Shown here: piece by piece, positions 14,185-28,799 of the stretch
Layout: every line of letters begins with the position of its first letter
Numbering within the stretch: position 1 is the stretch's first letter
Assembly (NCBI GenBank): GCA_024742815.1
Contig: JANSXX010000002.1
Location: forward strand, 299,395 to 331,394
Length of the DNA stretch: 32,000 bases
Origin: a bacterium
Lineage (GTDB): Bacteria; Bacteroidota; Rhodothermia; Balneolales; Balneolaceae
Direction: 5' to 3'
Notes under the pieces: generated by a model
The model's database searches: none
Seen by the model: the letters and a program-made list of their open reading frames with translations, nothing else
Told to the model about the DNA's origin: nothing
Made by a program: the position numbers and the translations under genes

Positions 14185-14205
14185 GAAAGCATTATATGAA
14201 GTGTT

Positions 14206-14238
14206 CAAAAAGCGGGCAGTAATGCTCGCTTTTTTTGG
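14206..14238. terminator. Bidirectional intrinsic terminator between convergent genes
   Basis: CAAAAA-AGCGGGCA-GTAA-TGCTCGCT-TTTTTTT. The 8-bp stem has one G-U pair, with an A-run on one side and a T-run on the other. It sits between the stops at 14184 (+) and 14253 (-). Confidence 0.65.
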
Positions 14239-14252
14239 TTAAGAAACGAATA

Positions 14253-16136
14253 TTAAGGAATATACTCTAAGTAAAAAATAATAGGTTCTATTGAAAAGCC
14301 TGAATTCAACAATCGATTGAAAATAGTTTGGGTTTCATTTCTATTAACCGATTGTCCCGTCATTACAGAATATCGACCACTAACGAGTTCTTCTACGCGG
14401 GTATTTATTCCTGTTCTTGATCGTACTTGTTGTGCTAGTTCATTGGCCTCTTGTCGATTACTCAGTTCGTCAACTTGAATTTGGTAGGCATATTTGTACG
14501 TAGCAGCTGTTTCCGGTTGGTGACGAATAAATAGATTTGAAGAAATTCCCATCTCCCTGAAAGTGCGTAATTGTTCTAGAACTACCTCTCGAGACTCGTA
14601 TGGTCCGGTAAGTACATTAAAAGTATCGGAAACTCGATTCATGTAAGCTTGTACACCGTATCGATCTAACAATTCGATGGTGAAATCTAAGCCATTAGCA
14701 CGGGTTTGAAATGCACCAAATTGAATGAGGTATTTTACAGGTTTCGGCCGCTGAATGGTATTGTTGTAACACTGATGAACAACACTTACACTTTTATCAT
14801 TAATTCTTGATGATAATTCATTTCGTAAGCTAACAACCTCTGTAAACGAGGAAGTAGGAGGTGTTCTAACCGAATATTCGTTGGTGTTATAGGTAAGTAT
14901 CACATCCGCTAAGTTTGATGATTCTATCGCATCAGCTCGTTGAAATGCTGTTTGTAAAGCAGAAAACTCACCAAGTTGCACCGAATACTGGCATCGAGCA
15001 TCCACTCGCAATAACGATGGCATGGCATTACTTGATGATGGAATTTCTGTAGCAGATGGTTCCGGCTCTGATTGCTCTACTGGTTCTAGTTCTTCTTCAG
15101 CTTGAGAAACAGACTCTTGTGTAACACTATCAGGATCGTTTTGAGGCTCAGCAGTTTCGGTAGCTTGTTGTCGATCTGAATCGGAATTAACATCGTCAGT
15201 TGCTGGTGTTTCTTCTTGCTGTTCAGCTGCTAACTGATTTCGGATTCGGTTTTCTTCCATCACCGTTAGTAAAGCCGGTTCTTCAGCTAAAACTACAACG
15301 TTTTCATTCGGATCGGGAGGAGGGAGCTCAGAAATACCAGGAATATCATTACTTAAACTTTCAGGAGTTCCTGATTCAGTTTCGCCAATAAACGATTCGT
15401 CATCAGTTTCCGGTTGTGTAAGAATTTCTTCTTTCAAATTATCAGATGAGTAATAAAGCCTTAATACCACTCGGCGATTTTTTTCTTTACTAGCCGCAAA
15501 AGGAAAACCTAAAGAATCATATTCAATTACCGGACGAGAATCTGCATAACCAGATGCTTTAAGTCGATTTGCGGGGATTCCAGCATCATTAAAATACTTA
15601 ACTACGTTTGCTGCTCTTGCTGTAGAAAGTTCCCAATTTGAGGGATAAGCTACGGATGAGATTGGAGTATTGTCGGTATGACCCTCAACATCTATTAAAA
15701 AATCGTTGTACTTAACCTGTTGCATAGCTATTAAAACGGTATTTAATAGCTGTTCGGAATTCGGATCTAACTGAGCTCGGCCCGGATCATAAAGGTCATC
15801 ACTTTTAAAACGAATTCTTAGATCATTTAAATCACGAATGATCTCCAGATTACCGGCTTCAATCTCCGGTTGAAGCAATTCGAATAATTCTCGTTCTATG
15901 GCTCCGATGGGAGTGGTTAAAAACTCAGTTTCATCTGCTAGTTTGCCAAAAATGGATGAAAGTGAAGAAAATTCGGACTTTGTAATTTGTGAAACAGAAA
16001 GCAGAATTATTAAAAACCCTAATACGATTGTAATGATATCAAGATAACTTACTTGCCAGCTCTCATCATCTTCTGATTCTTCATCCGGTAGTGGAAAAAG
16101 TGAATATTTAATTCTTATTGGTTTCTTTTTCTTCAC
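14253..16136 (-). CDS. MotB-like stator subunit: N-terminal TM with a conserved Asp, an OmpA-like peptidoglycan-binding domain, an acidic disordered linker and three C-terminal SPOR-like domains
   Basis: GTG start 9 nt after the MotA stop. SWQVSYLDIITIVLGFLIILL places an Asp (residue 33) at the mouth of the single TM, as in MotB D32. OmpA motif: VEGHTDNTPISS..YPSNWELSTARAANVVKYF...RLKASGYADSRPV...NRRVVL. Residues ~238-372 are E/D/S/P/Q-rich. Three beta-alpha-beta-beta-alpha-beta-like units start at YSVQLGEF, YLIQFGAFQTRANG and YAYQIQVDEL. Confidence 0.8.
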   Translation of the reverse strand: MKKKKPIRIKYSLFPLPDEESEDDESWQVSYLDIITIVLGFLIILLSVSQITKSEFSSLSSIFGKLADETEFLTTPIGAIERELFELLQPEIEAGNLEIIRDLNDLRIRFKSDDLYDPGRAQLDPNSEQLLNTVLIAMQQVKYNDFLIDVEGHTDNTPISSVAYPSNWELSTARAANVVKYFNDAGIPANRLKASGYADSRPVIEYDSLGFPFAASKEKNRRVVLRLYYSSDNLKEEILTQPETDDESFIGETESGTPESLSNDIPGISELPPPDPNENVVVLAEEPALLTVMEENRIRNQLAAEQQEETPATDDVNSDSDRQQATETAEPQNDPDSVTQESVSQAEEELEPVEQSEPEPSATEIPSSSNAMPSLLRVDARCQYSVQLGEFSALQTAFQRADAIESSNLADVILTYNTNEYSVRTPPTSSFTEVVSLRNELSSRINDKSVSVVHQCYNNTIQRPKPVKYLIQFGAFQTRANGLDFTIELLDRYGVQAYMNRVSDTFNVLTGPYESREVVLEQLRTFREMGISSNLFIRHQPETAATYKYAYQIQVDELSNRQEANELAQQVRSRTGINTRVEELVSGRYSVMTGQSVNRNETQTIFNRLLNSGFSIEPIIFYLEYIP

Positions 16137-16145
16137 AACAGCCGC

Positions 16146-16943
16146 TTAAATCATGTTTTTATTTCGGCGCATATGTGCTTGAAGCTTATCGTAAATTTGT
16201 AGCGAAGTTTTTTGCTCTTCGATTAGAATAATTCCCTCCAGGATCAATTTCTCTCTAAAATACCGTAGTGAAGCCACATTATTCATCTTTTTAGCCATTG
16301 GCGTGAAAATAAAATTACCAATCAGAATACCATATAATGTGGTCATTAAAGCAGCACCTAACCCACTCAATAACGACTCTACTTCACTAAATCCTGATAG
16401 GATTACGATCAGGCCAAAAAGGGTTCCTAACATCCCGAAAACAGGAGATGTCTTGCCCATACTAGCAATAATTTGATTCACCATTTGCTGGCGAGAGTAG
16501 TTTTCTTCAATATTGATCTCCCCAAGCTCACGAAGATCTTCGGTGTCATAATTGGTATCCAAAATCGAAAATAAATACCCCTCGAAACGATCAGCATATT
16601 CTTCGCTGAGCTGAGTAACTGCCGCGAATTTATTTTGCTTAATCATCTTTTGCCAGTCCATTACCCGCTGTATGTCTTCTTCTAACACCTCGTGGGTGAT
16701 GGTGCTATAAGAAAACAGTTTAGTGCTTTCAACGAGCGCCTTAATTACACTATTGAAAGGATAGCTAATAAATACACTGGCAGTTATTCCTCCGAAAACG
16801 ATGGCTAAACTTGGCAGATTTAAAAAAGCGAATCGAGAGGGAATTAAATCGTATTGCGTATACCCGGTTACCAGAAGTGCACCCCAAACCAAAATCAACA
16901 AAGAAATTAGAAAACATAGAATATTGAGTATGGATGTACGCAT
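16146..16943 (-). CDS. MotA/PomA-like stator proton-channel subunit
   Basis: 265 aa with a 4-TM MotA topology: TM1-TM2 at the N-terminus, a ~100-aa charged cytoplasmic loop, TM3-TM4, then a cytoplasmic tail. TM3 TSPVFGMLGTLFGLI and TM4 ALMTTLYGILIGNFIFTPMAKKM carry the conserved Pro residues of the MotA_ExbB channel core. Confidence 0.8.
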   Translation of the reverse strand: MRTSILNILCFLISLLILVWGALLVTGYTQYDLIPSRFAFLNLPSLAIVFGGITASVFISYPFNSVIKALVESTKLFSYSTITHEVLEEDIQRVMDWQKMIKQNKFAAVTQLSEEYADRFEGYLFSILDTNYDTEDLRELGEINIEENYSRQQMVNQIIASMGKTSPVFGMLGTLFGLIVILSGFSEVESLLSGLGAALMTTLYGILIGNFIFTPMAKKMNNVASLRYFREKLILEGIILIEEQKTSLQIYDKLQAHMRRNKNMI

Positions 16944-16950
16944 AGAGTTA

Positions 16951-17508
16951 TTAAAAGCTCTTTGTTAAATTTTCATCGATTAATCCATTATTCTGAAGTT
17001 GCTGAATAATGTAGGTGGAAGAAGGTATGGGAACAGAAGGGTCCATTTCAAGAGCTCTTCGCCAGTGACTCACAAATTCATTGATATATCCCAATCCAAG
17101 ATAAATACTACCACGTAAGGCTAACACATCAGCATTTTCTTTGATCAGTGCAGCGCGGTTGATCAGGAAGAGCGCATTTTCAAAATCGCCGGTATAAAAG
17201 TGCTGTTGAGCAAGTATATAGTAGTTTGTAAGGGTATTCGCTTGTGCTTGATATCTTGAATAGATCTCATCTTTATATAATTCGATGAGAGCTTCACGAA
17301 GTTCTTCCTCTTTAGCTTGCGCTTGCTCCAAACTATCTTGTATTGCCAGTTGAAGGGAATCTTCCGGCGAGATGGTGTCTTGTTCAGCAATCGGATCAGT
17401 GAACTGATTACTAGATGCGCAATGAATAAAGAGTACCGAAAGAATTAAAAAAATTACAAAAGCAGGTCTATGTTTCATTTTCACCTGTACTTTATTTGTC
17501 ATTCGCAT
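16951..17508 (-). CDS. Secreted/lipoprotein TPR-repeat protein
   Basis: Signal peptide with Cys (MKHRPAFVIFLILSVLFIHCASS). The start at ATG 17478 is preceded by AGGTGA and may be the real one. The C-terminal TPR-like helices are paralogous to the C-terminus of the 994-aa outer-membrane protein. Confidence 0.65.
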   Translation of the reverse strand: MRMTNKVQVKMKHRPAFVIFLILSVLFIHCASSNQFTDPIAEQDTISPEDSLQLAIQDSLEQAQAKEEELREALIELYKDEIYSRYQAQANTLTNYYILAQQHFYTGDFENALFLINRAALIKENADVLALRGSIYLGLGYINEFVSHWRRALEMDPSVPIPSSTYIIQQLQNNGLIDENLTKSF

Positions 17509-19345
17509 TCTTGCGGATAGAATTCATTAAGAGAGCCTTAGCATATTCGGTTTGGCGACCGCTCGTTCCTTGAAGCTCTTCAAGTTCCATGCGTAACAAA
17601 CGTTGTTCTCGCGTAGGTCGCGCAGATAAAATTCGATCCACAACTTGAGGAGGTAACCCAACAATGGCGTCTAGTAATGTTTCTGTATTAAGTGTTCGAA
17701 CGGCTTTTTTAATGATTTCATCACTTAACTCAGGTAAACGATCGATAGTAATAAACTGCTTTTCCAAGATTGCTCCAACTATCGAGCCAGTAGCTTTTAA
17801 CTCATCAATATAACGTTGTTGTTCGTGTACCGGAAGTCGTTCTAAAATAGGATAGAGGTGTTCAGCACCATATTGCTCGCTTCGTTCAGCTTCCACTAAA
17901 TCCATGGCTTTGTCGAAGAGTTCTGACGATATCTTTTGCTGCTGCTCGTTAGTTAAATTATTCAGCGATGCCATATGCAACATGATTTTAGCGGCAATTT
18001 CTTTATCTAATTTTTCGATCAGTAATGCAGCTTTATCATCCGGGATATACTGAAGTATAAAAGCACCGGAAAGGCTGTCTTCCGTTTCCAGTAATGTGAG
18101 AATATGTTTATCTGAAATGTGATCGAGGAATTTGAATAGTGAAAATTTGCTACGTTTTTTCTCAGATACGGTTTGTTTAGCACCTTGTTGAAGCATTCGA
18201 GCAAATTCTTCTACAATTTCTGCTCGTCGCTCTGGCGCTAATTCCTCAAGCTCCAATAAAGCATCGCTCAGGCTGTCGTAATCTTCAGGATGAAGTTCCT
18301 TTTTTAAAGTTCGTAGCAGATGTTTGTCGACAGCCACTAGATATTCAGCAGCTTTTTTAGCCCCGTTTTCTTCTTCACTTAACCAATACCTGAAAATAGT
18401 GGCAATCTCCTCAGGCTTAGTAAAAAATGCATTAACAATATCTTCTGTCGTCATGTCCTCATCACTTTGCTCAATATCACCCTTTACTTGCTCAGTGCTG
18501 GAAAAAGGTTGAGCCGACTGTTGTTGCGTGGCCATATCATTTTTAAGTGTATCCCGATAATCCCGAAGGGGAATTTGGGGCTGGGGCTTGTTCATCAATT
18601 TGTTAAACAAAAGTGTAAGCCCAAATAGCAGCATTAATGCCAATGCAGGAATATAGGTGTAGATGGAGTTGTAATCGGGCGCAGCAGGCTGTTGTACAAC
18701 AGTAGTAGCCGTAACAGGTTCGGGGGCCTCGGTATAATCTGGGATGGCTAATTGGGATATGGTGATTTCATCACCTCGAGCCTCGTTGATTTTTACTGCG
18801 ATTCCTGTAATAAATCGCATTAACTCAAGTTGAGCAGTAGTAACCGAAGTATCTGCATAAATATTAACGCTCATGTTAACGATACGCAGCGTTTTTATGG
18901 TATTTTCGTTTACAATAGTTTCAGGTTGCCGGTTACGGTTAGCAGGCTGACGAAGATTTTGTTCAGGCAAGAAGGGAAGGCCAGGCATGAATAGATTCTG
19001 CTCTTGTTGGCTCGATTCTACTACTTGATTACTGGTAGTACCTATCGTTTGATCGATCAGCTCAGCATTAATATTTACATCGATAAAAAATTTCTTTCGA
19101 TTGAAGTAATTTGAAAGAATTTGGATGATTTGGGAATCATACTGTTGTTCCAGATTGGCAACGCGTAGTTCAAGAGATTGAGAACTGTATGGATCAAAAG
19201 CCGTTTGAGCGCGAGTGTTGGTAGAGGCAAGGAAACAAGTTGTTAAAAATAGAAGAGCTAGTAATTTCACGCCAAAATTGGTTAAAATTTTGGCAAGCAT
19301 AGAGTCAAATATGTGACGTATTCTGTGCATTTTAATCTGATGCAC
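17492..19345 (-). CDS. Membrane-anchored mini-FliF::FliG fusion protein (FliF-like periplasmic ring-building region, TM helix, and a complete FliG N/M/C cytoplasmic region)
   Basis: The ORF opens at GTG 19345. ATG 19330 lies 1 nt after the upstream stop (TAAaATG) and is the likely start. Periplasmic part (nt ~18662-19210): IKTLRIVNMSVNIYAD...TTAQLELMRFITGIAVKINEARGDEITISQLAIP parallels the FliF end motif (..rlsVaVvv..lt.eq...i..lv..a.G....RGD.l.V...pF). A TM helix follows (IPALALMLLFGLTLLF). The cytoplasmic ~320 aa (nt ~17495-18448) align by eye with FliG. LQYIPDDKAALLIEKLDKEIAAKIMLHMASLNNLT corresponds to LSHLPPEKAAEVLSLLPEELRAEVLLRIATLESVS. FITIDRLPELSDEIIKKAVRTLNTETLLDAIVGLPPQVVDRILSARPTREQRLLRMELEELQG corresponds to FENLVDVDDRSIQRLLQEVDSESLLIALKGAEPPLREKFLRNMSQRAADILRDDLANRG. 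Confidence 0.7.
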   Translation of the reverse strand: MHQIKMHRIRHIFDSMLAKILTNFGVKLLALLFLTTCFLASTNTRAQTAFDPYSSQSLELRVANLEQQYDSQIIQILSNYFNRKKFFIDVNINAELIDQTIGTTSNQVVESSQQEQNLFMPGLPFLPEQNLRQPANRNRQPETIVNENTIKTLRIVNMSVNIYADTSVTTAQLELMRFITGIAVKINEARGDEITISQLAIPDYTEAPEPVTATTVVQQPAAPDYNSIYTYIPALALMLLFGLTLLFNKLMNKPQPQIPLRDYRDTLKNDMATQQQSAQPFSSTEQVKGDIEQSDEDMTTEDIVNAFFTKPEEIATIFRYWLSEEENGAKKAAEYLVAVDKHLLRTLKKELHPEDYDSLSDALLELEELAPERRAEIVEEFARMLQQGAKQTVSEKKRSKFSLFKFLDHISDKHILTLLETEDSLSGAFILQYIPDDKAALLIEKLDKEIAAKIMLHMASLNNLTNEQQQKISSELFDKAMDLVEAERSEQYGAEHLYPILERLPVHEQQRYIDELKATGSIVGAILEKQFITIDRLPELSDEIIKKAVRTLNTETLLDAIVGLPPQVVDRILSARPTREQRLLRMELEELQGTSGRQTEYAKALLMNSIRKNANDK

Positions 19346-22316
19346 GCCTATTCACCCTTTCTTCAAGTACTTCCATATCCGGAATTACAAGGTCGGGGTT
19401 AAATCGGAGTGCCTGTTCCCAATGTCGTTGCGCCTGATCGATGTTACCTTCAAAATAATAAAAACTTCCCTTTAAAGCGTGTGCTTGTGCAGTTTCAAAA
19501 AGTTCTAATGATTCGTTAACATAGCGGAAGGCTAAGTCTATGTTGTTAGAATAAAAGGCGTTTTGAGCTTTGATTATGAGCCGTAAAGCATTATCAACTT
19601 CTTTAAATACTTCTTGAGAATATTCTAATATTTCTGGCGACGATTTTATCTCGTCGGTAACCTGTGCAATAGTGAGCGCGGCAAGGCTGTCTTCTTGGGA
19701 TTGTTGTTGTACATCAAGAGGGTAGAGCTCGAAATTTAGTCCTTCTACAAAATCACCATCTCTAGTAGTTTCAACCTCAAAGTTTATAAGTTCAGGCTCG
19801 GATCTTGACTGAAGTATTGAAAGTTGAGAGGGATCAATTTCTAACCTGTAATCACCCGGGCGAATAGGATATTCATAAAAACTTCCATCAGAAAATGTTC
19901 TAAGTTCCTTTACCTCATTCTCTTTTAGATCAGTAAGAAGCACTTTAAGTCCTCCAATCCCTTGCGATAATCCACCTTCGTAAATTCTAGCAACATTTCC
20001 TTCCATTACGCCACTCATGTTGAATGGGATATCTATTAGTTTAAAACTATTAGGATCCGTAATTATCGAAAATTTATCTTCTTCAGGTACCAACATTGGG
20101 TTTTTAATTGACGCCTGATTTAGTTCAACGTTGTAACGAAAATATGAGTTTAATTGAGTGTAATACAGGATTCCATTTTTAGAAACAGATGAAGCACCGC
20201 TTCTACCTAGTCTCAAGTTTATATCATCAAGTAATTCATCTTCCGATTCTTCATAAACTCCATTAGTGTTATTGTCCACAAAAAACCGAACTGCAGTTGC
20301 AGACCTTCCAACCTGATTACGGCTTGTCCAGATAAAATTATTAAAGTTAGAATCATAACCGATAGACCCCCTAACTGTTTGGCTTGCGCTTGTATTTCCT
20401 CTAATGAAAGTTGATGTAGAATTTGATCTTACTTTACCGAAATCGATGACAAAATTGAGTCTAATCGTATTAAATTGTCCTTGAAAATTTCTACCAAAAG
20501 ATGCCTGAATTCTTCCTTGGTTAAAAACACTTCGAGAAACAAGAACTTCGCCTTGCTGAAATTCATTAGTTGATGGTAAAAAGCGAAATTGACTTCTTAT
20601 AAATGTACCCCTTATAAATTTTGGGATATTTGGGTTCCTCGAAAAGTTATAGGTTATGGCAGATTCTACTAATCCTGAACCGGAACTGTTAAAAATATTG
20701 TAGGAGTCAATAATTCTGTCGGTATATCCTAATCTAAAATTAATTCTACTAATTTTTGCACTGACATCAGTTCTAATGGTACTTATACTTACCCCTTCAC
20801 GTACTCTTGTGAAATTGGAGTATCTCAATCCAAAAGGTTGATTGAAGATTTTTATAGGGAAGAAAACATTACCAATAAATTGGTAGTCATTATTGGAGCT
20901 ATTGAAAAAATTAGATTCCCCGGTGAAATTTGTAAAATCAAAATTTAAGCTTGCAGAATTTGGATAAACAGCATTTACTGAAGAACGTAAATATCCGTCG
21001 GTTACACCTTCAAGTGTTAAAATGTAATTTCGTGCAATTCTGCTGGAAAGGGTTGCAGTGTAAAAGGGAATATTCTTGCCAATTTCTGTCGAGTAATATT
21101 CCATACCAACTTTCGAGCTTAACCAGCGATTTATCCCATAGCTAACGTTAGCCTGCAGTGTTTTTTCTCTTTCTAATTTACCGATTACTCTGTTATCTAA
21201 AACCCCAGCATTAATACGATAATCAAACTCACCTTGTGGTACGAAATTAAACGGGATTTGCTGTCGATTCCTTTGTTGAATTACTTGTCCTGTTGGCCCG
21301 TAAATTCTTATGTCTAGTTGGGTTGTTCCATAATATTGTGGAACTAAAAATCGATAATTTCCGAATTCATCGGCTTGGCTAAAATCAATTAATGCATTAT
21401 CTAGATATAGTTCGATTTCAGACTGTGGTATAGTTGTGCCTTGTAGCTCAAATTCATCAAAAAGTCGCCGAGGTTCAATTGGTTCGTTCGAGATTCTAAT
21501 CCCCGTATAACTGTTCATAAAAACTCCATCTGTATTTGATTGCCCAACAGTTATAGAACTCAACCACGAGTTGTTTCGGATAAGAGTTTTCCAGCGTAAG
21601 TTATTGCTTTCAAATACAGAACTTTCTGAGCTAAAATTTCCAAATAAACTACCTTGTAAATCTCCCCCTAATAGTTGTAATCCTAAAGAGCTACTGTAAT
21701 TAAAGGAGCTTAATTCGCTACTTAAATTAGTTCCAACACTGTAATCAAGAAATCCCCCGTCAACTATTTTTCTCTCCAAACCATACCCAATGGGATAATA
21801 GCTAACATCCCTTCGATTGGTGTTTGCAAGCTTCAATTTTGCTCTTCGTAAAAATTGTTGGATAATTGGAATTTCAACTTCTGTTTCTAATCGGAGCGTT
21901 AGATTGTTAAAGTCAACAGAGAAGTCTAAACCAAATATTTCAGAAAAGTATCTGGGAGGTAAGTATGTATCCAGATCTGTAAGTATGTAGTCATCGGTAG
22001 TGATTGAATAAGATTGATCACCAAAAACGATTGTTTGCCTTCTTAAATCAATTGAGTAAGGGGTTTGTTCTAGGGCAAACTTACCACTAATAACAATGTC
22101 GTTTACATTTGCCTCAATATGAAGTAGTTCAAATAATTCCTTTACAGGTAAATTAAATTCTTCACCATCATAATAAGCTATCACATAAGAATTAATTACT
22201 CCACGATGGCTAAATTGGAGATATACTTCGAAATCATCTTCACTTTGAGCGTAAACAGAACTACTAAATATTAGTAGCAAAAAAAAAAAGAGAAAAAAGC
22301 CTAGGCATTTTCTCAA
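19332..22316 (-). CDS. Large outer-membrane protein: usher-like beta-barrel with CarboxypepD_reg-like beta-sandwich inserts and a C-terminal TPR module
   Basis: TTG start overlaps the chaperone-like stop (TTGA). Signal peptide MRKCLGFFLFFFLLLIFSSSVYAQ. Long runs of alternating amphipathic beta-strand sequence rich in Y/F/N/S/G/R. Beta-sandwich-like segments GNYRFLVPQYYGTTQLDIRIYGPTG and DGSFYEYPIRPGDYRLEIDP. A TPR tail at the C-terminus. The usher role is inferred from position (after the chaperone-like gene, next to the pilin-like genes) and size, not from recognised motifs. Confidence 0.45.
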   Translation of the reverse strand: MRKCLGFFLFFFLLLIFSSSVYAQSEDDFEVYLQFSHRGVINSYVIAYYDGEEFNLPVKELFELLHIEANVNDIVISGKFALEQTPYSIDLRRQTIVFGDQSYSITTDDYILTDLDTYLPPRYFSEIFGLDFSVDFNNLTLRLETEVEIPIIQQFLRRAKLKLANTNRRDVSYYPIGYGLERKIVDGGFLDYSVGTNLSSELSSFNYSSSLGLQLLGGDLQGSLFGNFSSESSVFESNNLRWKTLIRNNSWLSSITVGQSNTDGVFMNSYTGIRISNEPIEPRRLFDEFELQGTTIPQSEIELYLDNALIDFSQADEFGNYRFLVPQYYGTTQLDIRIYGPTGQVIQQRNRQQIPFNFVPQGEFDYRINAGVLDNRVIGKLEREKTLQANVSYGINRWLSSKVGMEYYSTEIGKNIPFYTATLSSRIARNYILTLEGVTDGYLRSSVNAVYPNSASLNFDFTNFTGESNFFNSSNNDYQFIGNVFFPIKIFNQPFGLRYSNFTRVREGVSISTIRTDVSAKISRINFRLGYTDRIIDSYNIFNSSGSGLVESAITYNFSRNPNIPKFIRGTFIRSQFRFLPSTNEFQQGEVLVSRSVFNQGRIQASFGRNFQGQFNTIRLNFVIDFGKVRSNSTSTFIRGNTSASQTVRGSIGYDSNFNNFIWTSRNQVGRSATAVRFFVDNNTNGVYEESEDELLDDINLRLGRSGASSVSKNGILYYTQLNSYFRYNVELNQASIKNPMLVPEEDKFSIITDPNSFKLIDIPFNMSGVMEGNVARIYEGGLSQGIGGLKVLLTDLKENEVKELRTFSDGSFYEYPIRPGDYRLEIDPSQLSILQSRSEPELINFEVETTRDGDFVEGLNFELYPLDVQQQSQEDSLAALTIAQVTDEIKSSPEILEYSQEVFKEVDNALRLIIKAQNAFYSNNIDLAFRYVNESLELFETAQAHALKGSFYYFEGNIDQAQRHWEQALRFNPDLVIPDMEVLEERVNRRASD
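22279..22289 (-). repeat. Homopolymeric T11 tract (A11 on + strand) inside the signal-peptide coding region of the usher-like gene
   Basis: Counted directly: CTC TTT TTT TTT TTG encodes LFFFL of MRKCLGFFLFFFLLL. A further A6 run lies 3 nt away. Confidence 0.9.
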
Positions 22317-23179
22317 CGTTTAATAAATGTAGTAGTTTCTGTAACATTTGGCATTTGAACTAGATCAGAATCTGGAATATCACTTCGTCGACTCTCAAAT
22401 GTAGTTCTGATTAGATATTCACCATTCGGAATATCGTCGATTTCGAATTCTTGACGGAAAATGCCGTCAAAATATAATGATGTTGATAAGAAGCCACGTC
22501 GTACTTCCTGTCCGTTACTATCAATAATAGAAGTTGTAATAGAGCCTAAAAATGGGCTGTTACCGGTTCGTAAATGATCAATAAGAACAATAAGCTTTCC
22601 TGACTCAGAATCATATTCAGTTCTAATTTCTTCTATATCTATACCAGTTGCAACATCGCCTTTTTTATAAAATATACCTGTCACCTGCTCTACTCTAATA
22701 CCCACTCTTGCAGCAACTGTATTTTCGGTTTGTAATTCTATCGGCGGTGTTTCAGGTGTGGAAGCAGTCTTAATCCTTGCCCAGTAGGTCCCATCCTCAA
22801 GTTCATTGGGAGGATTCAGTCGAAGTCTGATTACTTGTCTTTGCCCCGGAGCGAGTGTAAAATTTCTGGGAAAAGCACGAATGTACTCGGCAATCGAGTG
22901 TTTCTCTCTCATCTGCTGATCATCCTGTACAATGGTTCTATATCCTTGCTCGTCACTTTCGGTGTAAGCGAAAGCAAAATCTATAGATATTTCTTGAGTC
23001 TCATTTGAGTTGTTGATCACCATGTAGGTCCCAAATCGAGCATTTTCAGCCACGAATAAGTTAGTGGGGGCAATGGTTACTTGTGCAGTTGCGATCGAGA
23101 TAGATGATATTATAGATAGTATCGCTGTAAATGTAATAATAGACTTCATCGCGTAGATATAATTTGCCATCGAGATCAA
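22313..23179 (-). CDS. PapD-like periplasmic pilus chaperone candidate (two Ig-like domains)
   Basis: The ORF opens at TTG 23179. Alternative ATG starts lie at 23170 and 23149 (MKSIITFTAILSIISSISIATAQ is a good signal peptide). VTIAPTNLFV...GTYMVINNS and IRAFPRNFTLAPGQRQVIRLRL..P.ELEDGTYWARIKTASTP mirror the PapD domain-1 pattern (v.l..tR.if......l.v.N ... atPP..rl.Pg..q.vRl....lP.DrEslf..n...iP). Confidence 0.5.
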   Translation of the reverse strand: MISMANYIYAMKSIITFTAILSIISSISIATAQVTIAPTNLFVAENARFGTYMVINNSNETQEISIDFAFAYTESDEQGYRTIVQDDQQMREKHSIAEYIRAFPRNFTLAPGQRQVIRLRLNPPNELEDGTYWARIKTASTPETPPIELQTENTVAARVGIRVEQVTGIFYKKGDVATGIDIEEIRTEYDSESGKLIVLIDHLRTGNSPFLGSITTSIIDSNGQEVRRGFLSTSLYFDGIFRQEFEIDDIPNGEYLIRTTFESRRSDIPDSDLVQMPNVTETTTFIKR

Positions 23180-23246
23180 TTTAAATAAAAAAATACAAAT
23201 TTGTTCTAAGGTTTATAACTAATGATTGCTTCCATCTATTATGTAC

Positions 23247-23278
23247 AAAAAAAAAGTCTCACAGCTGTGAGACTTTTC
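23247..23278 (-). terminator. Strong intrinsic terminator (or attenuator) after the major pilin-like gene
   Basis: Perfect palindrome AGTCTCAC-AGCT-GTGAGACT (23255-23274). On the minus strand it is followed by nine U (A9 at 23247-23255 on + strand). It lies 24 nt downstream of the stop at 23298. Confidence 0.7.
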
Positions 23279-23297
23279 AAATTTCTTAACTACAATC

Positions 23298-23849
23298 TTA
23301 TTGATAGTTAACAGTAACGTTTAGGTCACCAGATGCACCAGCTGTTCCAGAATCAGAAGTATAGGTACCGGATGCTTGTGAAGAAAGAGTACCTAGATTA
23401 CCACCGATGTATACAAATAAGTCGCCAGAACCAGAGGTTTCAGTAGCTGCAGTCGCAGTATTTTTTGTAATGTCAGTTGAAGATGCAATGGCATCTGTAC
23501 TGTTACCAGAGAAGTCTGGAGTGAAAGTCATAGAATTAGTTCCATTACTTAAGGTAACTGTCGCTTGATCCCAATCAATTAATAATTGAGTAGAGTTAGC
23601 TGCACTAATAGTTAGTTTACCAAAAGTTGCTCCAGCACCTACATCTGCTGTACTAGCACCTTGTGGATCAAGTACCGGGCTACCAGTATCCTGAATGTTA
23701 CCAAAACTAACATCAGTATTTTTAGTTAATGTAATGTCAGCAAGTACAACGGCACCAATGTTAACATCAACGTTTTCCTGTGCAAAAGCACCAGTTGCGA
23801 ATAGAGCAACGATTGCGAAAGCGGCAAATATATTTTTTAGATTTTTCAT
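23298..23849 (-). CDS. DUF4402/SCPU-like secreted pilin-type subunit; candidate major subunit
   Basis: Signal peptide MKNLKNIFAAFAIVALFATGAFAQ. N-terminal strand with alternating hydrophobics, NVDVNIGAVVLADITL. VSFGNI motif. Thr/Ser/Ala/Gly-rich body. C-terminal LFVYIGGNLG...ASGTY....GDLNVTVNYQ with a penultimate Tyr. It has its own flanking intergenic regions and terminator. Confidence 0.6.
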   Translation of the reverse strand: MKNLKNIFAAFAIVALFATGAFAQENVDVNIGAVVLADITLTKNTDVSFGNIQDTGSPVLDPQGASTADVGAGATFGKLTISAANSTQLLIDWDQATVTLSNGTNSMTFTPDFSGNSTDAIASSTDITKNTATAATETSGSGDLFVYIGGNLGTLSSQASGTYTSDSGTAGASGDLNVTVNYQ

Positions 23850-23949
23850 AGAAGTATTGATTTAGTGGCTTTTAAAATTTCTGTTAAAAAATTATTGATT
23901 GTTCAATCTGATTCCTAGTTAAAAACTCTTAATTAAAATTGTCTAAATA

Positions 23950-24474
23950 TTAATCGTACTCAATTAGCAAGAGAATCTCACCGCTATATTCTCCTTCATT
24001 TATGTTACCTACATTAATTGAACCATAAATGTAAAGATAGATCTCTTCCCAAAATTCTTGATTATTGTTCAATGCTCGAGTTGCTCGCTCCGAAACAGGT
24101 AAGTAGCCAGAATTTCCAACCAAAAGTGTCGAATTGTTGATGTTTCTGTTACCTGAATTGTTATATGAAGCATTTATGGTTAATGGAATATTATCCTCGA
24201 TCGCGGGATTTTCATGAGTTAAAAACTCTGGGTATTCTATACTGACATAAATATTTTGAGTGTAATAAGCGCGGATATTAAAAATACCCATATTTAAATC
24301 ACCTAATTCTACTTCAGAGACACCGGAATTAATTACTAGTTGACCAAAGCTCAAATTTTGTTCAACAGTGGCTGACAACTCAGGTTCTACTCTTATCTGT
24401 AGATTAATGAATTGAGCAATTGCATTGTTATTTAGCAATAAAAAAAACCATATAAATAAGCAGTGCCTAATCAT
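23950..24474 (-). CDS. DUF4402/SCPU-like secreted pilin-type subunit (paralog)
   Basis: Signal peptide, LSFGQL motif, and C-terminal IYLYIYGSINVGNINEGEYSGEILLLIEYD. Its start overlaps the upstream stop by 8 nt (ATGATTAG). Confidence 0.55.
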   Translation of the reverse strand: MIRHCLFIWFFLLLNNNAIAQFINLQIRVEPELSATVEQNLSFGQLVINSGVSEVELGDLNMGIFNIRAYYTQNIYVSIEYPEFLTHENPAIEDNIPLTINASYNNSGNRNINNSTLLVGNSGYLPVSERATRALNNNQEFWEEIYLYIYGSINVGNINEGEYSGEILLLIEYD

Positions 24475-25051
24475 AGTTTATTGTCACATTCACTGTTCCC
24501 GTGTAACTTCCAGCGTCTACATTTCCAACATTAACTGATCCGTAGATGTAAATGTAGGCAGTTTCATTAAAAAGAGATGGGTTGAATCCTTCATAAACAG
24601 GAGTTGGTGGAGGACCAGGAGGAACATTACCTCTATATTTAATTGGGAATTGCTCACTTGCAGTAGTTCCGGAGACTAGAAAATCTGATACTTGGGAAAT
24701 ACTCATAATACCTCTGTTGGCATAGGATGCTTGCAGAGTGTAAGGAATCCGACAACTTGGATTAGTTTGACAAGAAAGATTCCCGTTTAACAAAAGATAT
24801 TGATCGGCTGTTAGATCAACTATAATATCGAGATATTTGACGCCTTCAATAGTCAGTACTTTCGCGTTGTCTATTGTTACTGTTGAAACTCCGTCATTTT
24901 GGATTAAAGTGCCAAAATCAAGTTCAGATCCAGGGCTTAGTTCAGATAGCGTAACAGAATAACTACTACTAAAACTTCCAAAGTCTATTTCTTGTGCATG
25001 TAAAGTTACACTGAGAAATGATAGTGATAGTATGAAAGCTAATTTCGACAT
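24467..25051 (-). CDS. DUF4402/SCPU-like secreted pilin-type subunit (paralog, with a Pro-rich insert)
   Basis: Signal peptide MSKLAFILSLSFLSVTLHAQ, LDFGTL motif, insert NVPPGPPPTPV, and C-terminal AYIYIYGSVNVGNVDAGSYTGTVNVTINYD. Confidence 0.55.
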   Translation of the reverse strand: MSKLAFILSLSFLSVTLHAQEIDFGSFSSSYSVTLSELSPGSELDFGTLIQNDGVSTVTIDNAKVLTIEGVKYLDIIVDLTADQYLLLNGNLSCQTNPSCRIPYTLQASYANRGIMSISQVSDFLVSGTTASEQFPIKYRGNVPPGPPPTPVYEGFNPSLFNETAYIYIYGSVNVGNVDAGSYTGTVNVTINYD

Positions 25052-25057
25052 TCAATT

Positions 25058-25549
25058 CTATATGTAATCAATTTCAATGGTGAAGTCTCCTTCGTAATTA
25101 CCCGGTTGAGCATTGGTTAGGTTAACTTCTCCACCTACCCAAATGTAGTATGTCCCTTGATTATTGAATCGCAAATTTCTGTTTTCGTAATCTATTAATT
25201 GCGAACTTGTTTGATCCTCTATACTGTTACCACTTAGTTCATATCTGAAGTTTAAAAATCCTTCACCTTCAATTCGGTTTAACTGACGATCTAATTCATA
25301 TTCAAGTCTAAATTCTGCATCAGGAGTACCATTTGCTATCATGAATCCGGCATTCAAGTCATTAACAGGATTCACGTAAATAACTTCTTGACCTGGTTGG
25401 CTATTACCAAAAGTCATCGTATTCACGGTGATTAATTCAATAGACTGAATAACGTTTGCCTGAATACTTACTTCAGCTGATAATTGATTACTCTCCTGAG
25501 AAAAAACCAGACATGGAAATAACAATAAAAGTAGAAATATATAACGCAT
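25058..25549 (-). CDS. DUF4402/SCPU-like secreted pilin-type subunit (paralog)
   Basis: Signal peptide MRYIFLLLLLFPCLVFSQ, MTFGNS motif, and C-terminal TYYIWVGGEVNLTNAQPGNYEGDFTIEIDYI. Confidence 0.55.
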   Translation of the reverse strand: MRYIFLLLLLFPCLVFSQESNQLSAEVSIQANVIQSIELITVNTMTFGNSQPGQEVIYVNPVNDLNAGFMIANGTPDAEFRLEYELDRQLNRIEGEGFLNFRYELSGNSIEDQTSSQLIDYENRNLRFNNQGTYYIWVGGEVNLTNAQPGNYEGDFTIEIDYI

Positions 25550-25643
25550 ATTTTGAAAACTGACCTTTCGTATAATTTAAAGGCTTTAACCGAGATAAGG
25601 CAGTTAATCTTTCTTAATTAAGGCTAATGGATAAAGACTGATT

Positions 25644-26039
25644 TCACCACGCGAAGGCGTTGAAATAGAAGGGATCTAGCTCGATTTCTCTTCCCTGGAG
25701 TTGTATTGAACGTGGCAGTACTTCGGTAAGGCGTACGTAATTGGATGTCATCTCAAAATTGTAATTGAGCATCTGATTTCTGAATCTGGATGAAAACCGT
25801 ACGGTGATGGAGTAGATGCTGTCCCGAGGTGCCTCGTCTACCAGATAATAGGGGTTGGGAGTGTTGATCGGATAGAGATCGCCAACAATTTTGATTTGAT
25901 CTCGACCGGGTATAAAAGTGCTATCTTCAAGCTGTGGTTTCAGATTTACACTAAAAGTGATCGAAGTTTGAGCTTGAAGATAGCTTGAGGTTGAAATAAA
26001 AAGAGTAATAAAAAATACTAAATAAGATAGTGTTCGCAC
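25644..26039 (-). CDS. Small secreted beta-sandwich protein (CBM20/Ig-like pattern), function unknown
   Basis: GTG start 1 nt after the stop of the 490-aa gene. Signal peptide ending YLQAQ. ITFSVNL....GRDQIKIVGDL......YYLVDEAPRDSIYSITVRF....LNYNFEM resembles a starch-binding-like sandwich but lacks the usual Trp residues. Confidence 0.4.
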   Translation of the reverse strand: MRTLSYLVFFITLFISTSSYLQAQTSITFSVNLKPQLEDSTFIPGRDQIKIVGDLYPINTPNPYYLVDEAPRDSIYSITVRFSSRFRNQMLNYNFEMTSNYVRLTEVLPRSIQLQGREIELDPFYFNAFAW

Positions 26040-26040
26040 G

Positions 26041-27513
26041 TTAGTTATTGCTTTTGTTTACTTCGTCTTTCCAGTATACAATAGAGAAAACACTTTCTCT
26101 TGGGAATGATGGTGGAATAGTTGCCTTCAACCGGTTGTCATATTGGTAATTCTTGATGTAGCCGGAAACTACCGTACTTCCGGAAAAGGTGCCAACCGGT
26201 CCACGATTTTGTTGAATGATTCCACCTAACATATTTAGTGTACCTTTGCTACCACCAGAATTATAGTTCTCTACGGTAAAAGAGGTATTTAGCGCTACAA
26301 TAGATGCATGAATGGTTAAATCCTGAGAACCATTAGCCGAATGGGCATATCGATCAACTACAACATCTCCTTCGCTCACCAAACCGAGTAAGTCGGCAGA
26401 CGTTGAATCGGCAAGGGGGTTAACGCGGTAAGTAATATCGCCCATAATTTCGATTTCATCTTCGGCGTGTAAGGTTACACTGCCGCTAACTTCACCCTGT
26501 ACTTTTATTTCACCATCCGTAGAAATCACACCATTAATGTCGGCCAGGTTTACCGTTTCAACGGTTGGTGGAGTTGGAGGAATGGGAGTACACCACCACA
26601 TCCAATTAGCACAGTCATTCCCCGGTGAGCCACCATAAGAAATATCAGCATAGCCATGATCAGCATCGTAGTAAAAATCTACATTAATATCCCCTGAGTA
26701 TCTTTTCCCACCATCGTTAGCAGCAGCAACAAGTCGGTTAATTTCGTAACTCGTAGGTTCACTTTTTAGCGGTGCGTTGAAGTTTTCTCCACCATAGAAG
26801 TTTGGATTCGTCGGGTTGGTACTGTGAGCTCGCCACATATTTGGGCTCGTAACCAATCCATAAAAAGAGGGTGCACCAGACATCGCGAATTGCCCATTGG
26901 TATGGATTGGACCATAAATATTATCCTGATCCATAAACCAAATGGTAGAGCCATTAGCAGCTAACTCAGATTGAGTCATGTAGGAATACTTACTAAAGGA
27001 ATCTCGTTGCATCAACACTTCGGTAGTCACTTCAATATCATCGTATGTGCTTGAACTTACCAGCAGTACTTTATATTCGTCCCAACTACCTACACTATTG
27101 TTCGGTTTGTTTTGACTGTCTTGGGTATAGCTATTTAAAGAACCTGCGAGGTTAATAGGTAAGGTAATACCGGTTTGGTTAAGTTGATCTTCAAGTTGCT
27201 CTTCTATTTCTAGCACTTCATCTAAACCTAGTAACCCTAAGCTTAGTTTTTTTCGACCTTCATTTGAGCGTGAAAGTAAAGCTTTGGTATCCACTACCTC
27301 ATCTATGTCGATGCTGCCTACCCAGTTGTTATTGTCTTTCATCGTTTCAACCGCATTGTCGATTAAACTTTTAGACAGATTTCTGGCTTGTTGCGCTTTG
27401 TAATAATCGGTAGTTACAACTGGGATTTCGGCCACACGATCTTGGTTGTTTACCTGCACAATGCCCGTTAAAATTGTAAGTCCGCTTACTAAGAATAATA
27501 AACTTCTTCCCAT
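26041..27513 (-). CDS. PilX/GspK-like large minor-pilin-type protein with an N-terminal hydrophobic anchor
   Basis: ATG preceded by a strong SD (AAGGAGAAGTT-ATG). The N-terminus is MGRSLLFLVSGLTILTGIVQV, followed by YYKAQQARNLSKSLIDNAVE (PilX_N-like helix). The C-terminal end GTLNMLGGIIQQNRGPVG....SGYIKNYQYDNRL...PPSFP resembles the conserved ending of PilX-like proteins as I recall it. Confidence 0.45.
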   Translation of the reverse strand: MGRSLLFLVSGLTILTGIVQVNNQDRVAEIPVVTTDYYKAQQARNLSKSLIDNAVETMKDNNNWVGSIDIDEVVDTKALLSRSNEGRKKLSLGLLGLDEVLEIEEQLEDQLNQTGITLPINLAGSLNSYTQDSQNKPNNSVGSWDEYKVLLVSSSTYDDIEVTTEVLMQRDSFSKYSYMTQSELAANGSTIWFMDQDNIYGPIHTNGQFAMSGAPSFYGLVTSPNMWRAHSTNPTNPNFYGGENFNAPLKSEPTSYEINRLVAAANDGGKRYSGDINVDFYYDADHGYADISYGGSPGNDCANWMWWCTPIPPTPPTVETVNLADINGVISTDGEIKVQGEVSGSVTLHAEDEIEIMGDITYRVNPLADSTSADLLGLVSEGDVVVDRYAHSANGSQDLTIHASIVALNTSFTVENYNSGGSKGTLNMLGGIIQQNRGPVGTFSGSTVVSGYIKNYQYDNRLKATIPPSFPRESVFSIVYWKDEVNKSNN

Positions 27514-27522
27514 AACTTCTCC

Positions 27523-28104
27523 TTAATATGGTAAGTTGATATTGTTCGGTACAAAAATTCGTTTCCAGATTAATCTAGGATATTGCTGATTCCCGTCATT
27601 AATTGTGTATGGTTCTACTGTTTCAACCATTAATTCAACTTCGATTTTTTTAACAGAGGCCAACGTAGTTGTTGGAGTACCGTCCGCTGTGTAGTAATTC
27701 AAATCGAAATAAACTACCGGAAACTCAATGGTTCCGTACGAGCTGGTGCCAATTGGCCCCACTCTTTTTAAATAATAATCGTTTGGATTGGTGCTGTTTA
27801 CGGCATCGCTGGTGTCGAAATACCAACGTATATTTGTAGATCCATAGCTGTCGTTATCATACACATCAGCCTGAAAAATAATATTCTGATCGCCAATTGT
27901 AGTGAAAGGAACCGCTGTGCCGGCGTTAAAACCAATCTTATTAAAATCGTTTGCAAGTACATCAACCAAGTTGTCTAAATTCGATTGGTTGATGGTGTTT
28001 AGTGTTAGTTCCTGGGTTTGATTTATAACCTGAGCGTTGAAATTCAGGATCGAAATCATGAATAATCCACCAATCACGAATGTTATGGCTAGTCCTGCAT
28101 TCAT
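27523..28104 (-). CDS. PilW/GspJ-like minor-pilin-type protein
   Basis: N-terminal hydrophobic helix MNAGLAITFVIGGLFMISIL. The body follows the minor-pilin pattern: IIFQADVYDND...IRWYFD...YYLKRV...VVYFDLNYYTADGTPTT.LASVKKIEVELMVE. There is no G-F-T-L-x-E prepilin site. Confidence 0.45.
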   Translation of the reverse strand: MNAGLAITFVIGGLFMISILNFNAQVINQTQELTLNTINQSNLDNLVDVLANDFNKIGFNAGTAVPFTTIGDQNIIFQADVYDNDSYGSTNIRWYFDTSDAVNSTNPNDYYLKRVGPIGTSSYGTIEFPVVYFDLNYYTADGTPTTTLASVKKIEVELMVETVEPYTINDGNQQYPRLIWKRIFVPNNINLPY

Positions 28105-28106
28105 GG

Positions 28107-28526
28107 CTAGTAGGTGTAGGATTTAACGTATTCTAAGGTAATAAATACTTCGGGGGTAACATTCTGATTGAGTACAGTAACCGTTACTTGGTATTTTTTC
28201 ATCGAACCGGTATCCTCAATTAATTCTGAAGTACCGTTTATAATAAAAGTAGAACTGTATTGATCACTTGATCCGTAATTATGTACTTCTTCGATGGGGT
28301 AGCTTGAGTATACATAGTTACCGCTACTTGGGTCTAATTCGTCGGAATCATAGATCCATTGCACTTTATCCAATTCATCCTGAGCAACAGCAATTGCACG
28401 ATATTCAGCTTCGGCTTGGTAAATTGCCTGCCGGTTTGAGTTGAAACTTCGTGCGGTATTTAAGGATAGAAACCCAAAAATAACCATCGCTCCAATCAAA
28501 TATGTTAACTCAGCGTAACTGCTCAT
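28107..28526 (-). CDS. PilV/GspI-like small minor-pilin-type protein
   Basis: The N-terminus is MSSYAELTYLIGAMVIFGFLSL, followed by an amphipathic helix QAIYQAEAEYRAIAVAQDELDKV and a small beta domain ending KKYQVTVTVLNQ...VFITLEYV. An in-frame stop lies 6 codons upstream, so no longer leader is possible. Confidence 0.4.
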   Translation of the reverse strand: MSSYAELTYLIGAMVIFGFLSLNTARSFNSNRQAIYQAEAEYRAIAVAQDELDKVQWIYDSDELDPSSGNYVYSSYPIEEVHNYGSSDQYSSTFIINGTSELIEDTGSMKKYQVTVTVLNQNVTPEVFITLEYVKSYTY

Positions 28527-28799
28527 GGTTTTGTGGTATAGTTATATATAAAAGTGAAAAAAAAAATGAATAATTAAAATTAATCTATCATAACAGAATG
28601 TCGATTTTTTATACAAATAGCTTGCTATTACACTATTTTAAGTCACTTCCATTAGGATTCATTAAGCAAGTTTTCGATTCCAAGAAAAAATGATCAAAAA
28701 CGGTGCTTACTCATGCATACGTAGTTATCGACACATCGGATTGGTTGATAACATAGTTTTTTTATAATGAGGCAAAAGCTAGTGTACCGTTACACGATT

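Follow-up and report, generated by a model that had tools for sequence, protein, structure and literature searches.

We analysed a stretch of 32,000 nucleotides (nt) from contig JANSXX010000002.1 of a member of the Balneolaceae (assembly GCA_024742815.1, forward-strand positions 299,395 to 331,394), hereafter called the window and numbered from its first letter. The subject is a block of 14 genes at 14253-28526, in which the putative components of an outer-membrane chaperone-usher pilus lie beside a rotor and a stator of flagellar type. All 14 open reading frames (ORFs) of the block are on the minus strand, which bears out the unidirectional arrangement claimed in an earlier note on this DNA. 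The three gaps above 90 bp listed in that note were recovered as well, at 118 nt (23180-23297), 100 nt (23850-23949) and 94 nt (25550-25643), and the remaining junctions range from -17 to +9 nt. The note had asked whether the block is one regulon or three adjacent operons. Our evidence, which consists of genomic data and structure prediction alone, points to neither: the usher and the motor form one co-evolving system, and a set of pilin-like genes varies independently of it.

The rotor is encoded as one polypeptide of 617 aa (17492-19345, minus strand), which comprises a first transmembrane (TM) helix, a periplasmic ring domain resembling ring-building motif 3 (RBM3) of FliF, a second TM helix, a linker and the N, M and C domains of FliG. 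Its Pfam scores for FliG_N, FliG_M and FliG_C (38.9, 34.7 and 38.5 bits, respectively) are all above the cut-offs. Against the FliF model TIGR00206 it scores 20 bits, a weak match to the C-terminal part of FliF for which the cut-off is 130. In the AlphaFold2 model (mean confidence, pLDDT, 83), residues 10-45 form TM helix 1, residues 56-198 a periplasmic alpha-beta-beta-alpha-beta domain with long strands and an inserted loop, residues 225-251 TM helix 2, residues ~256-299 a disordered linker and residues 300-616 FliG. Foldseek separated the two halves of this model cleanly: ranks 1-13 are FliG, confirming the flagellar-type rotor proposed earlier, and ranks 14-31 are MS-ring, RBM3, S-ring or collar entries of FliF, with the periplasmic domain matching the RBM3, S-ring and collar structures at E 3e-5 to 4e-3 and a target TM-score of ~0.5. 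Therefore, the protein is a natural mini-FliF::FliG fusion. It has one ring-building domain, RBM1 and RBM2 being absent.

Conservation in the FliF::FliG family, which counts 137 clusters at E<1e-30, is mostly periplasmic and includes an MPGLPFLP(E) loop, D165 and R190-G191-D192, in addition to W321, G328, F404 and F406. In the torque helix, R579 and E587 are conserved and align with R281 and D289 of E. coli FliG; the RPxREQ motif is kept family-wide, and D288 of E. coli aligns with a Met. The ratio of nonsynonymous to synonymous substitution rates (dN/dS) of the rotor gene, taken where synonymous changes are unsaturated, is 0.036. A distant homologue at a related locus (L017:5844-8267, P0270) is 807 aa long and carries a LysM peptidoglycan-binding domain. 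The start of the window protein is uncertain, as most database homologues have 602 aa (ATG at 19300) and the longest ORF has 617 aa.

The stator is encoded by two genes downstream of the rotor gene. The MotB-type subunit (627 aa, 14253-16136, minus strand) contains a plug, a TM helix with the channel residue Asp33, an OmpA-like peptidoglycan-binding domain, an acidic linker and a C-terminal SPOR domain; Asp33 aligns with D32 of E. coli MotB, and the Pfam scores for MotB_plug, OmpA and SPOR (31.8, 58.7 and 50.2 bits) are above the cut-offs. The MotA/PomA-type subunit (265 aa, 16146-16943, minus strand) matches MotA_ExbB at 61.8 bits. The flagellar-type stator of the earlier note is thus upheld, since MotA and both the plug and the OmpA domain of MotB pass the Pfam thresholds. 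The best NCBIfam matches are flagellar MotD, MotB and MotS for MotB and MotP, MotA and PomA for MotA, in both cases below the equivalog cut-offs. The equivalents of P173, G176, G183, T209 and P222 of MotA are invariant across all lineages, and the protein has a PomA-like short cytoplasmic domain without the E. coli-specific insertion. Judged from sequence by the FIT/GIT criteria of PMC12505986, the predicted stator belongs with the flagellar MotAB/PomAB type (the “FIT” clade). The dN/dS of the N-terminal part of MotB is 0.025-0.035; for MotA, dS is saturated and dN is 0.024-0.032, on par with the housekeeping pyruvate dehydrogenase (PDH) genes. Such values, together with that of FliF::FliG, indicate that the motor genes are not relics.

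Between MotA and the rotor lies the gene for a periplasmic TPR lipoprotein (185 aa, 16951-17508, minus strand), which shows TPR matches and whose lipobox Cys is shared by every homologue, within the clade and beyond it. Its start is uncertain too, most database homologues having 175 aa (ATG at 17478) as against 185 aa for the longest ORF. Because the homologues of the rotor and of this lipoprotein have 602 and 175 aa, the overlaps of 14 and 17 nt in the block may in fact be gaps of 31 and 13 nt.

The gene preceding the rotor encodes a protein of 994 aa. Its core (19700-22316, minus strand) consists of an N-terminal domain, an outer-membrane beta-barrel region and C-terminal beta-sandwich domains, and its TPR tail (~aa 875-994; 19332-19700, minus strand) is the proposed interface with the motor. 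Pfam gives no usher family match for it at sequence level. In the Foldseek search with its AlphaFold2 model (pLDDT 78), in which the plug domain was not delimited separately, the top 17 matches were all FimD/PapC, full-length or pore-only (E 2.7e-29 to 2.7e-14, target TM-score 0.4-0.6), and the predicted fold thus confirms the protein as an usher. This TPR tail and the TPR lipoprotein are paralogues (30% identity, E 7e-10).

The usher gene follows that of a putative periplasmic chaperone (288 aa with a signal peptide, 22313-23179, minus strand), with an overlap of 4 nt between the chaperone stop and the start of the usher. PapD_N is the Pfam domain matched by most members of the chaperone family (10/24, best E only 4.8e-4), and an hhalign comparison with a single FimC sequence gave a probability of 2.6%, which is not significant; by sequence the protein is therefore weakly PapD-like. 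Searches of PDB sequences with single proteins and family profiles returned no match for the chaperone or the usher. Next comes a DUF4402 pilus subunit of 183 aa (23298-23849, minus strand; E 4.9e-5), the candidate major subunit, which is the most variable gene of the block and has a GC content at third codon positions (GC3) of 0.196. It is preceded by three more subunits of DUF4402 type (174, 194 and 163 aa; 23950-25549, minus strand), two of which match DUF4402 directly. Across the subunit family, 33 of 42 members match DUF4402 (best E 5e-29) and two weakly match SCPU. When the subunit profile was compared with 177,635 PDB sequences, only CsuE (E 0.08) and CsuA/B (E 0.9) were found, both over their full length with weak E-values. 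The chaperone-usher-like subunits and assembly factors claimed by the earlier note are therefore supported for the usher, by fold, and for the subunits, by DUF4402 with weak Csu matches alone in PDB, and less so for the chaperone.

Related loci (designated L001 onwards) were compared in a census set of 69 loci with a complete usher and at least 2 kb of downstream sequence; a metagenome scan by usher alignment yielded 78 further loci. Census labels were taken from non-iterated searches. Iterated hidden Markov models drifted, with usher::SPOR fusions pulling ushers into the MotB, SPOR and TPR models. A scan of genome contigs with the single FliG-like protein reached close Balneolaceae relatives only; contig JAEPQH010000018 of a metagenome-assembled genome (MAG) is 98% identical across this protein. 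Synteny inside the Balneolales was not taken as evidence of linkage, because the flanking PDH and alaS genes are syntenic too.

The TPR tail of the usher and a downstream ring gene occur together or not at all: both are present in 31 of the 69 loci and both are lacking in 38, and neither occurs singly. Of the 31 TPR-tailed loci, 30 keep full FliG and 29 gave a MotA match. In L020, MotA was not detected, but the contig ends ~2 kb past the usher. In a neighbour-joining tree of usher cores, motor and motor-less states interleave, with ~5 or more coupled changes.

Each module is also found apart. Motor-less loci of Gracilimonas and Fodinibius (L009 and L010), at the same chromosomal site, contain pilin-like genes, subunits, chaperone and usher, with no FliF::FliG, TPR lipoprotein or MotAB, and the ushers of motor-less relatives end in SPOR domains in place of TPR. 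Conversely, two motor-only cassettes (L011:7387-12534 and L012:8506-13751) encode FliF::FliG, a protein of 365-395 aa, the TPR lipoprotein, MotA and a short MotB; neither an usher gene nor DUF4402 genes lie in their vicinity. The 365-395-aa protein has a signal peptide and a beta-rich C-terminal half, ends in an aromatic residue in L012, and is possibly an outer-membrane barrel. The L011 cassette is flanked by two large T9SS-sorted proteins (T9SS, type IX secretion system).

The usher-motor string also recurs at a distance. L017 and L018 (55-59% GC, different flanks) carry subunits, two chaperone paralogues, a TPR-tailed usher, FliF::FliG, MotA and MotB, with overlaps of 4-8 nt; identity to the window is 32-34% for the full-length usher, 22-23% for FliF::FliG and 22-38% for the string overall. 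L008 has the same core string. No pilin-like genes are present at L017 and L018. Genes for a histidine kinase and an AraC-type response regulator close both loci and suggest that they are under two-component control. RecA of L017/L018 is ~80-85% identical to Balneolales-like MAG sequences and places L017 in a deep Balneolota-like lineage, so that no occurrence in another phylum can be claimed. The check on co-occurrence and gene order proposed in the earlier note therefore gives a mixed answer: the usher-motor string is conserved, but the block as a whole is not kept as a unit. Likewise, its prediction for independent operons, that sub-blocks should occur apart and never together, holds in its first half (L009 and L010; L011 and L012) and fails in its second, since the two are repeatedly found together and the usher is then TPR-tailed.

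A comparison of the window with strain L001, which is near-identical in the flanks, provided a further link. DNA identity between the two is 92-100% from 14,000 to ~19,650, falls to 47-70% from ~19,700 to 25,700 and returns to 92-98% from ~25,750 to 28,500. This hypervariable cassette of ~6 kb (19,700-25,700) extends from the 163-aa subunit gene through usher codon ~870 and thus covers the subunits, the chaperone and the usher core. Its proteins share 32% (183-aa subunit), 58-80% (other subunits), 68% (chaperone) and 65% (usher) identity with those of L001, and its GC3 is low (0.20-0.30). Allelic replacement, or diversifying selection acting on a surface structure, appears to lie behind it. 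The left breakpoint falls within the usher gene, near codon 870-880, where the core gives way to the TPR tail, and hence the tail is inherited with the motor. Lying between a conserved motor and a conserved adaptor tail, the cassette illustrates how modules can be exchanged in nature at a fixed boundary between protein domains.

Taken together, the co-variation of tail and motor, the TPR paralogy, the distant recurrence and the co-inheritance of the tail identify usher and motor as one co-evolving system, and of their genetic and evolutionary coupling we are highly confident.

The genes at the upstream end of the block follow a different pattern. A trio at 26041-28526 (minus strand) encodes proteins of 490, 193 and 139 aa, the first a DUF4900 protein; all three begin with a hydrophobic helix that continues, as judged by eye, into a long helical stretch. 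DUF4900 (E 1.1e-9) is the sole family match of the 490-aa protein, and the 139-aa and 193-aa proteins have no Pfam match even at E<=10. The N-termini (MSSYAE..., MNAG|LAITF... and MGRSLLF...) have patterns conserved in their families but do not conform to the canonical prepilin signature of Gly(-1) and Glu(+5). The 193-aa family has a conserved “MNxG” (Gly4) ahead of the helix and an aromatic residue at +5. In the 139-aa family (28107-28526, minus strand; homologues in L001-L010), precursor position 6 is invariably acidic (MSSYAE, MNDFSD, MTDYSD, MVGYSE); this residue would be +5 only if Met1 alone were removed, and it recalls Glu5 of type IV pilins without a leader peptide. The locus contains no assembly ATPase, platform protein, secretin or prepilin peptidase. 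The trio thus shares with the minor (pseudo)pilins of type IV pili and type II secretion systems a hydrophobic N-terminal helix in all three proteins, but differs from them in signature and in the lack of their assembly machinery genes at the locus. The description as type IV minor-pilin-like given in the earlier note consequently does not stand as an identity: with no family match beyond DUF4900 and no prepilin signature, the resemblance is one of architecture and not of membership.

A secreted protein of 131 aa (25644-26039, minus strand), with an ordinary Sec signal peptide and no Pfam match, is encoded next to the trio; its gene co-occurs with the DUF4900 gene in related loci and accompanies the pilin-like set. 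Pilin-like set and motor are both present in 15 loci and both absent from 14, and each occurs without the other in 10. It is to the pilus module, and not to the motor, that the pilin-like, DUF4900 and 131-aa genes belong as a facultative accessory. The trio is tandemly duplicated in the motor-less L009 (400-5776) and L010 (1198-6291) and in several metagenome loci.

The boundaries of the block agree with those described before. At its downstream end, a hairpin between an A-run and a T-run (14206-14238, AAAAAGCGGGCAGTAATGCTCGCTTTTTTT) has folding energies of -16.3 kcal/mol on one strand and -12.0 kcal/mol on the other, as claimed for a bidirectional intrinsic terminator, and ends both the block and a convergent DUF4914 gene; a simple terminator scan did not list it. 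At the upstream end, the AT-rich region of 273 nt (28527-28799) has 28.9% GC against 39.4% for the window, likewise as described, and is the presumed promoter region. An Rfam scan of the window, this leader included, found no element, the Bacteroidota-type motif TAnnTTTG was absent from the gaps and the leader, and sigma-70-like promoter sites and terminators showed no excess over shuffles in the region 13500-32000. Within the block, a hairpin with a 12-bp stem followed by T9 (23251-23278, minus strand, -15.4 kcal/mol) lies 19 nt past the 183-aa subunit gene; it is likely an attenuator or terminator and, in this position, would resemble the attenuators known after major-subunit genes. Three transcription units are probable, namely the pilin-like set with the 131-aa gene, the subunits, and the chaperone through MotB.

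The flanks are also as the earlier note had them, with housekeeping genes on one side, a T9SS adhesin gene on the other and no mobility genes among the window ORFs scanned. One side holds alaS, the PDH genes E1a, E1b and E2 and the DUF4914 gene. The DUF4914 protein (12301-14184, plus strand; Pfam E 2e-295) is encoded between pdhC and MotB; its gene is present in the window and L001 only, is not found at the same site in L002-L004 and L007, and appears to be a strain-specific insertion. Two genes of the far flank, for a T9SS-sorted BNR/sortilin-like protein (62-1435, plus strand) and a MerC-family protein (1526-1912, plus strand), are unrelated to the block. On the other side, the gene at 28800-31793 (minus strand) encodes a protein that combines Invasin_D3 with a C-terminal T9SS sorting domain. 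This adhesin is a conserved upstream neighbour of the pilus genes across the Balneolales, with or without the motor (L007:1-668, L009:1-269, L010:1-932), and is absent from L017/L018.

We favour, with some reserve, the reading that the block encodes an archaic-type chaperone-usher pilus in which a minimal rotary motor of flagellar type, set in the inner membrane, is coupled to the outer-membrane usher. Whether this coupling is mechanical we regard as an even question. In the proposed mechanism, the FliF::FliG fusion would make a ring in the inner membrane, as do FliF and engineered FliF-FliG fusions, and MotAB units anchored to peptidoglycan would use ion flow to turn or push the ring via the torque helix of FliG. 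For the engineered fusions of Salmonella and Vibrio, ring formation is reported (PMC10941966, PMC11481574). The TPR tail of the usher and the TPR lipoprotein would dock on the periplasmic face of the ring, for which the conserved proline-rich loop MPGLPFLPE is a candidate site. Rotation, energised secretion, retraction and gating are all conceivable forms in which motor work might then act on usher or fibre.

Several points weigh against this reading. The co-variation of tail and ring (Fisher p 2.5e-20) is uncorrected for phylogeny, and the neighbour-joining tree in which the coupled changes were counted is a rough one. The chaperone assignment is weak at sequence level. The EHPQR motif of FliG is not conserved, E. 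coli EHPQ aligning with LDKE, and FliM and FliN genes were not found in the window; the rotor therefore differs from any characterised one. In MotA, the equivalents of R90 and E98 are ambiguous and could not be placed confidently. We infer the TPR-ring contact, the formation of the ring and its rotation from homology and co-variation. In addition, classical and archaic chaperone-usher assembly runs without energy input, from which the present variant may differ, given its adjacency to and co-variation with a MotAB/FliG motor; “self-secretion” in the Csu system is the subject of PMC9452303. Finally, L056 (10871-12248) encodes a TPR-tailed usher followed by a ring protein of 273 aa with LPGLPFVPE, DRGD and TM helices but without FliG, and then by the TPR lipoprotein; MotAB is lacking, and housekeeping genes (Obg, DprA, sigma-54) follow the lipoprotein gene. 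Ring, TPR proteins and usher can thus be maintained with no stator to power them, and at this locus at least a scaffold role is favoured; it is the ring/TPR pair that the TPR tail tracks most strictly.

L056 accordingly speaks for the main alternative, which we consider unlikely and in which the ring, the TPR proteins and MotB form a static envelope-spanning device for anchoring or positioning, with the pilus base tethered to peptidoglycan through the OmpA-like and SPOR domains and ion flow through MotAB serving gating or sensing. This alternative would fit the generally known energy independence of chaperone-usher assembly, and the SPOR domain found on the usher in motor-less relatives and on MotB here suggests a shared need for peptidoglycan anchoring. 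However, the short MotB of L017, L018, L011 and L012 has no SPOR domain, and nearly all TPR-tailed loci retain full FliG and MotA (30 and 29 of 31). Moreover, an anchor would require neither conserved torque-helix residues, a channel Asp and the MotA prolines nor a dN/dS of ~0.03.

The motor could instead serve another envelope process, such as movement of the T9SS adhesin or of another outer-membrane partner, its adjacency to the usher reflecting shared regulation. The usher-free cassettes L011 and L012, with their barrel-like protein of 365-395 aa, speak for this possibility, as do the position of L011 between two large T9SS-sorted proteins and the T9SS adhesin as a conserved neighbour in the Balneolales. 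We nevertheless hold it to be improbable: the adhesin is found equally in motor-less loci and is absent from L017/L018, and the perfect co-variation of tail and ring and the inheritance of the tail with the motor go beyond what shared regulation alone would produce.

Three independent operons whose synteny was merely inherited in the Balneolales are very improbable, and for usher plus motor this reading is largely refuted. It draws on the syntenic PDH and alaS flanks, on the internal terminator-like hairpin and three gaps that could split transcription units, and on the occurrence of every module alone somewhere. Yet the string of usher, FliF::FliG, MotA and MotB recurs at 22-38% identity with other GC and other flanks, the perfect co-variation of tail and motor involves repeated coupled changes, and from chaperone to MotB adjoining genes lie close together or overlap (-17 to +9 nt).

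Least plausible of all, FliG and MotAB as decaying flagellar remnants (the family ancestor was probably flagellate, and Aliifodinibius has a large flagellar gene set; PMC9909488) conflict with strong purifying selection, retained functional residues and a broad family of 137 clusters, and MotAB as a Zorya-like phage defence, to which the match of MotB to ZorB models (PADLOC, E 6.5e-18) might point, was rejected because PADLOC found no ZorA match on MotA and no ZorC, ZorD or other Zorya component, so that the ZorB match reflects generic MotB homology.

Under the favoured reading of a motor-coupled usher, the system can be set against known ones. It shares with the archaic (sigma-type) chaperone-usher pili, such as Acinetobacter Csu and Pseudomonas CupE, the gene logic of small subunits, a putative periplasmic chaperone and an outer-membrane usher, the FimD/PapC usher fold and the weak full-length matches of the subunit profile to CsuE and CsuA/B. 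It differs from them in that the subunits are DUF4402 and not SCPU, the usher has no Pfam usher match, PapD_N is weak, and the usher adds a C-terminal TPR tail (SPOR in some relatives) and is followed by a rotor and stator. We know of no chaperone-usher system with an inner-membrane energy source.

With the flagellar motor core the block shares FliG N/M/C, the FliF RBM3-like domain, the Arg and acidic residue of the torque helix, the plug, Asp and OmpA domain of MotB and the MotA prolines. Here, by contrast, FliF and FliG are in one polypeptide with a single ring-building domain and without EHPQR, and the partners are TPR proteins and an usher. No genes for a type III export apparatus, rod, hook or filament were found in the 32-kb window or the related loci examined; without these and the switch proteins at the locus, the block is not a flagellum. 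The engineered FliF-FliG fusions have the same covalent link, but they are laboratory constructs of full-length FliF, whereas the block protein is natural, belongs to a widespread family and has a truncated FliF part.

In its principle, an inner-membrane motor of the MotA/ExbB family that would energise an outer-membrane barrel or track, the block compares with ExbBD-TonB, TolQR-TolA-Pal, GldLM of T9SS and gliding, and AglRQS. TonB-dependent transporters and ushers are both plugged barrels, and the Ton, Tol, Gld and Agl systems are ion-driven 5:2 motors. Ton, Tol and GldLM use a periplasm-spanning rod (TonB, TolA, GldM) and have no FliG ring, whereas the block has a flagellar-type stator and a FliG rotor. 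By analogy, the system may work most like the Ton, Tol and GldLM energisers of the outer membrane, but with a FliG ring.

A bolder form of this proposal, which we regard as speculative, is a second kind of bacterial rotary surface appendage, namely a chaperone-usher fibre that FliF::FliG and MotAB would spin, or actively drive in some other way, via the TPR adaptors. Just as tentatively, the rotor-stator would then be an autonomous module plugged into different outer-membrane outputs, the usher here and the barrel protein in the motor-only cassettes. Balneola vulgaris has been recorded as motile with flagella (PMC5167729, Table 1), whereas Balneola genomes are reported to be without flagellar assembly genes and non-motile Aliifodinibius to have a large flagellar gene set (PMC9909488, section 3.4). 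A driven fibre could account for the “flagella” and motility of B. vulgaris, a lead that is as yet unverified.

To our knowledge, FliG and the MS-ring are regarded as parts of the flagellum only. Among open-access papers and bioRxiv preprints, our searches turned up no account of an usher connected with FliG or MotAB. Surveys of MotAB homologues and flagellar loss (PMC12505986, PMC12199754) mention no usher-linked motor and leave open the case of rotor proteins without flagella; the latter describes rotor proteins in non-flagellate genomes and asks for the purpose of “half a motor”. The present locus offers a concrete and testable answer to this question: a conserved and strongly selected minimal rotor with a flagellar-type stator, tied in genetic and evolutionary terms to a pilus usher. 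Were the scaffold interpretation true, pilus bases of this kind would still have an envelope-spanning architecture that is new. A mechanical coupling would overturn the passive, energy-free view of chaperone-usher pili and provide a new means of powering an outer-membrane machine; the flagellar rotor-stator would then count as a portable module, with consequences for ideas on the origin of the flagellar motor.

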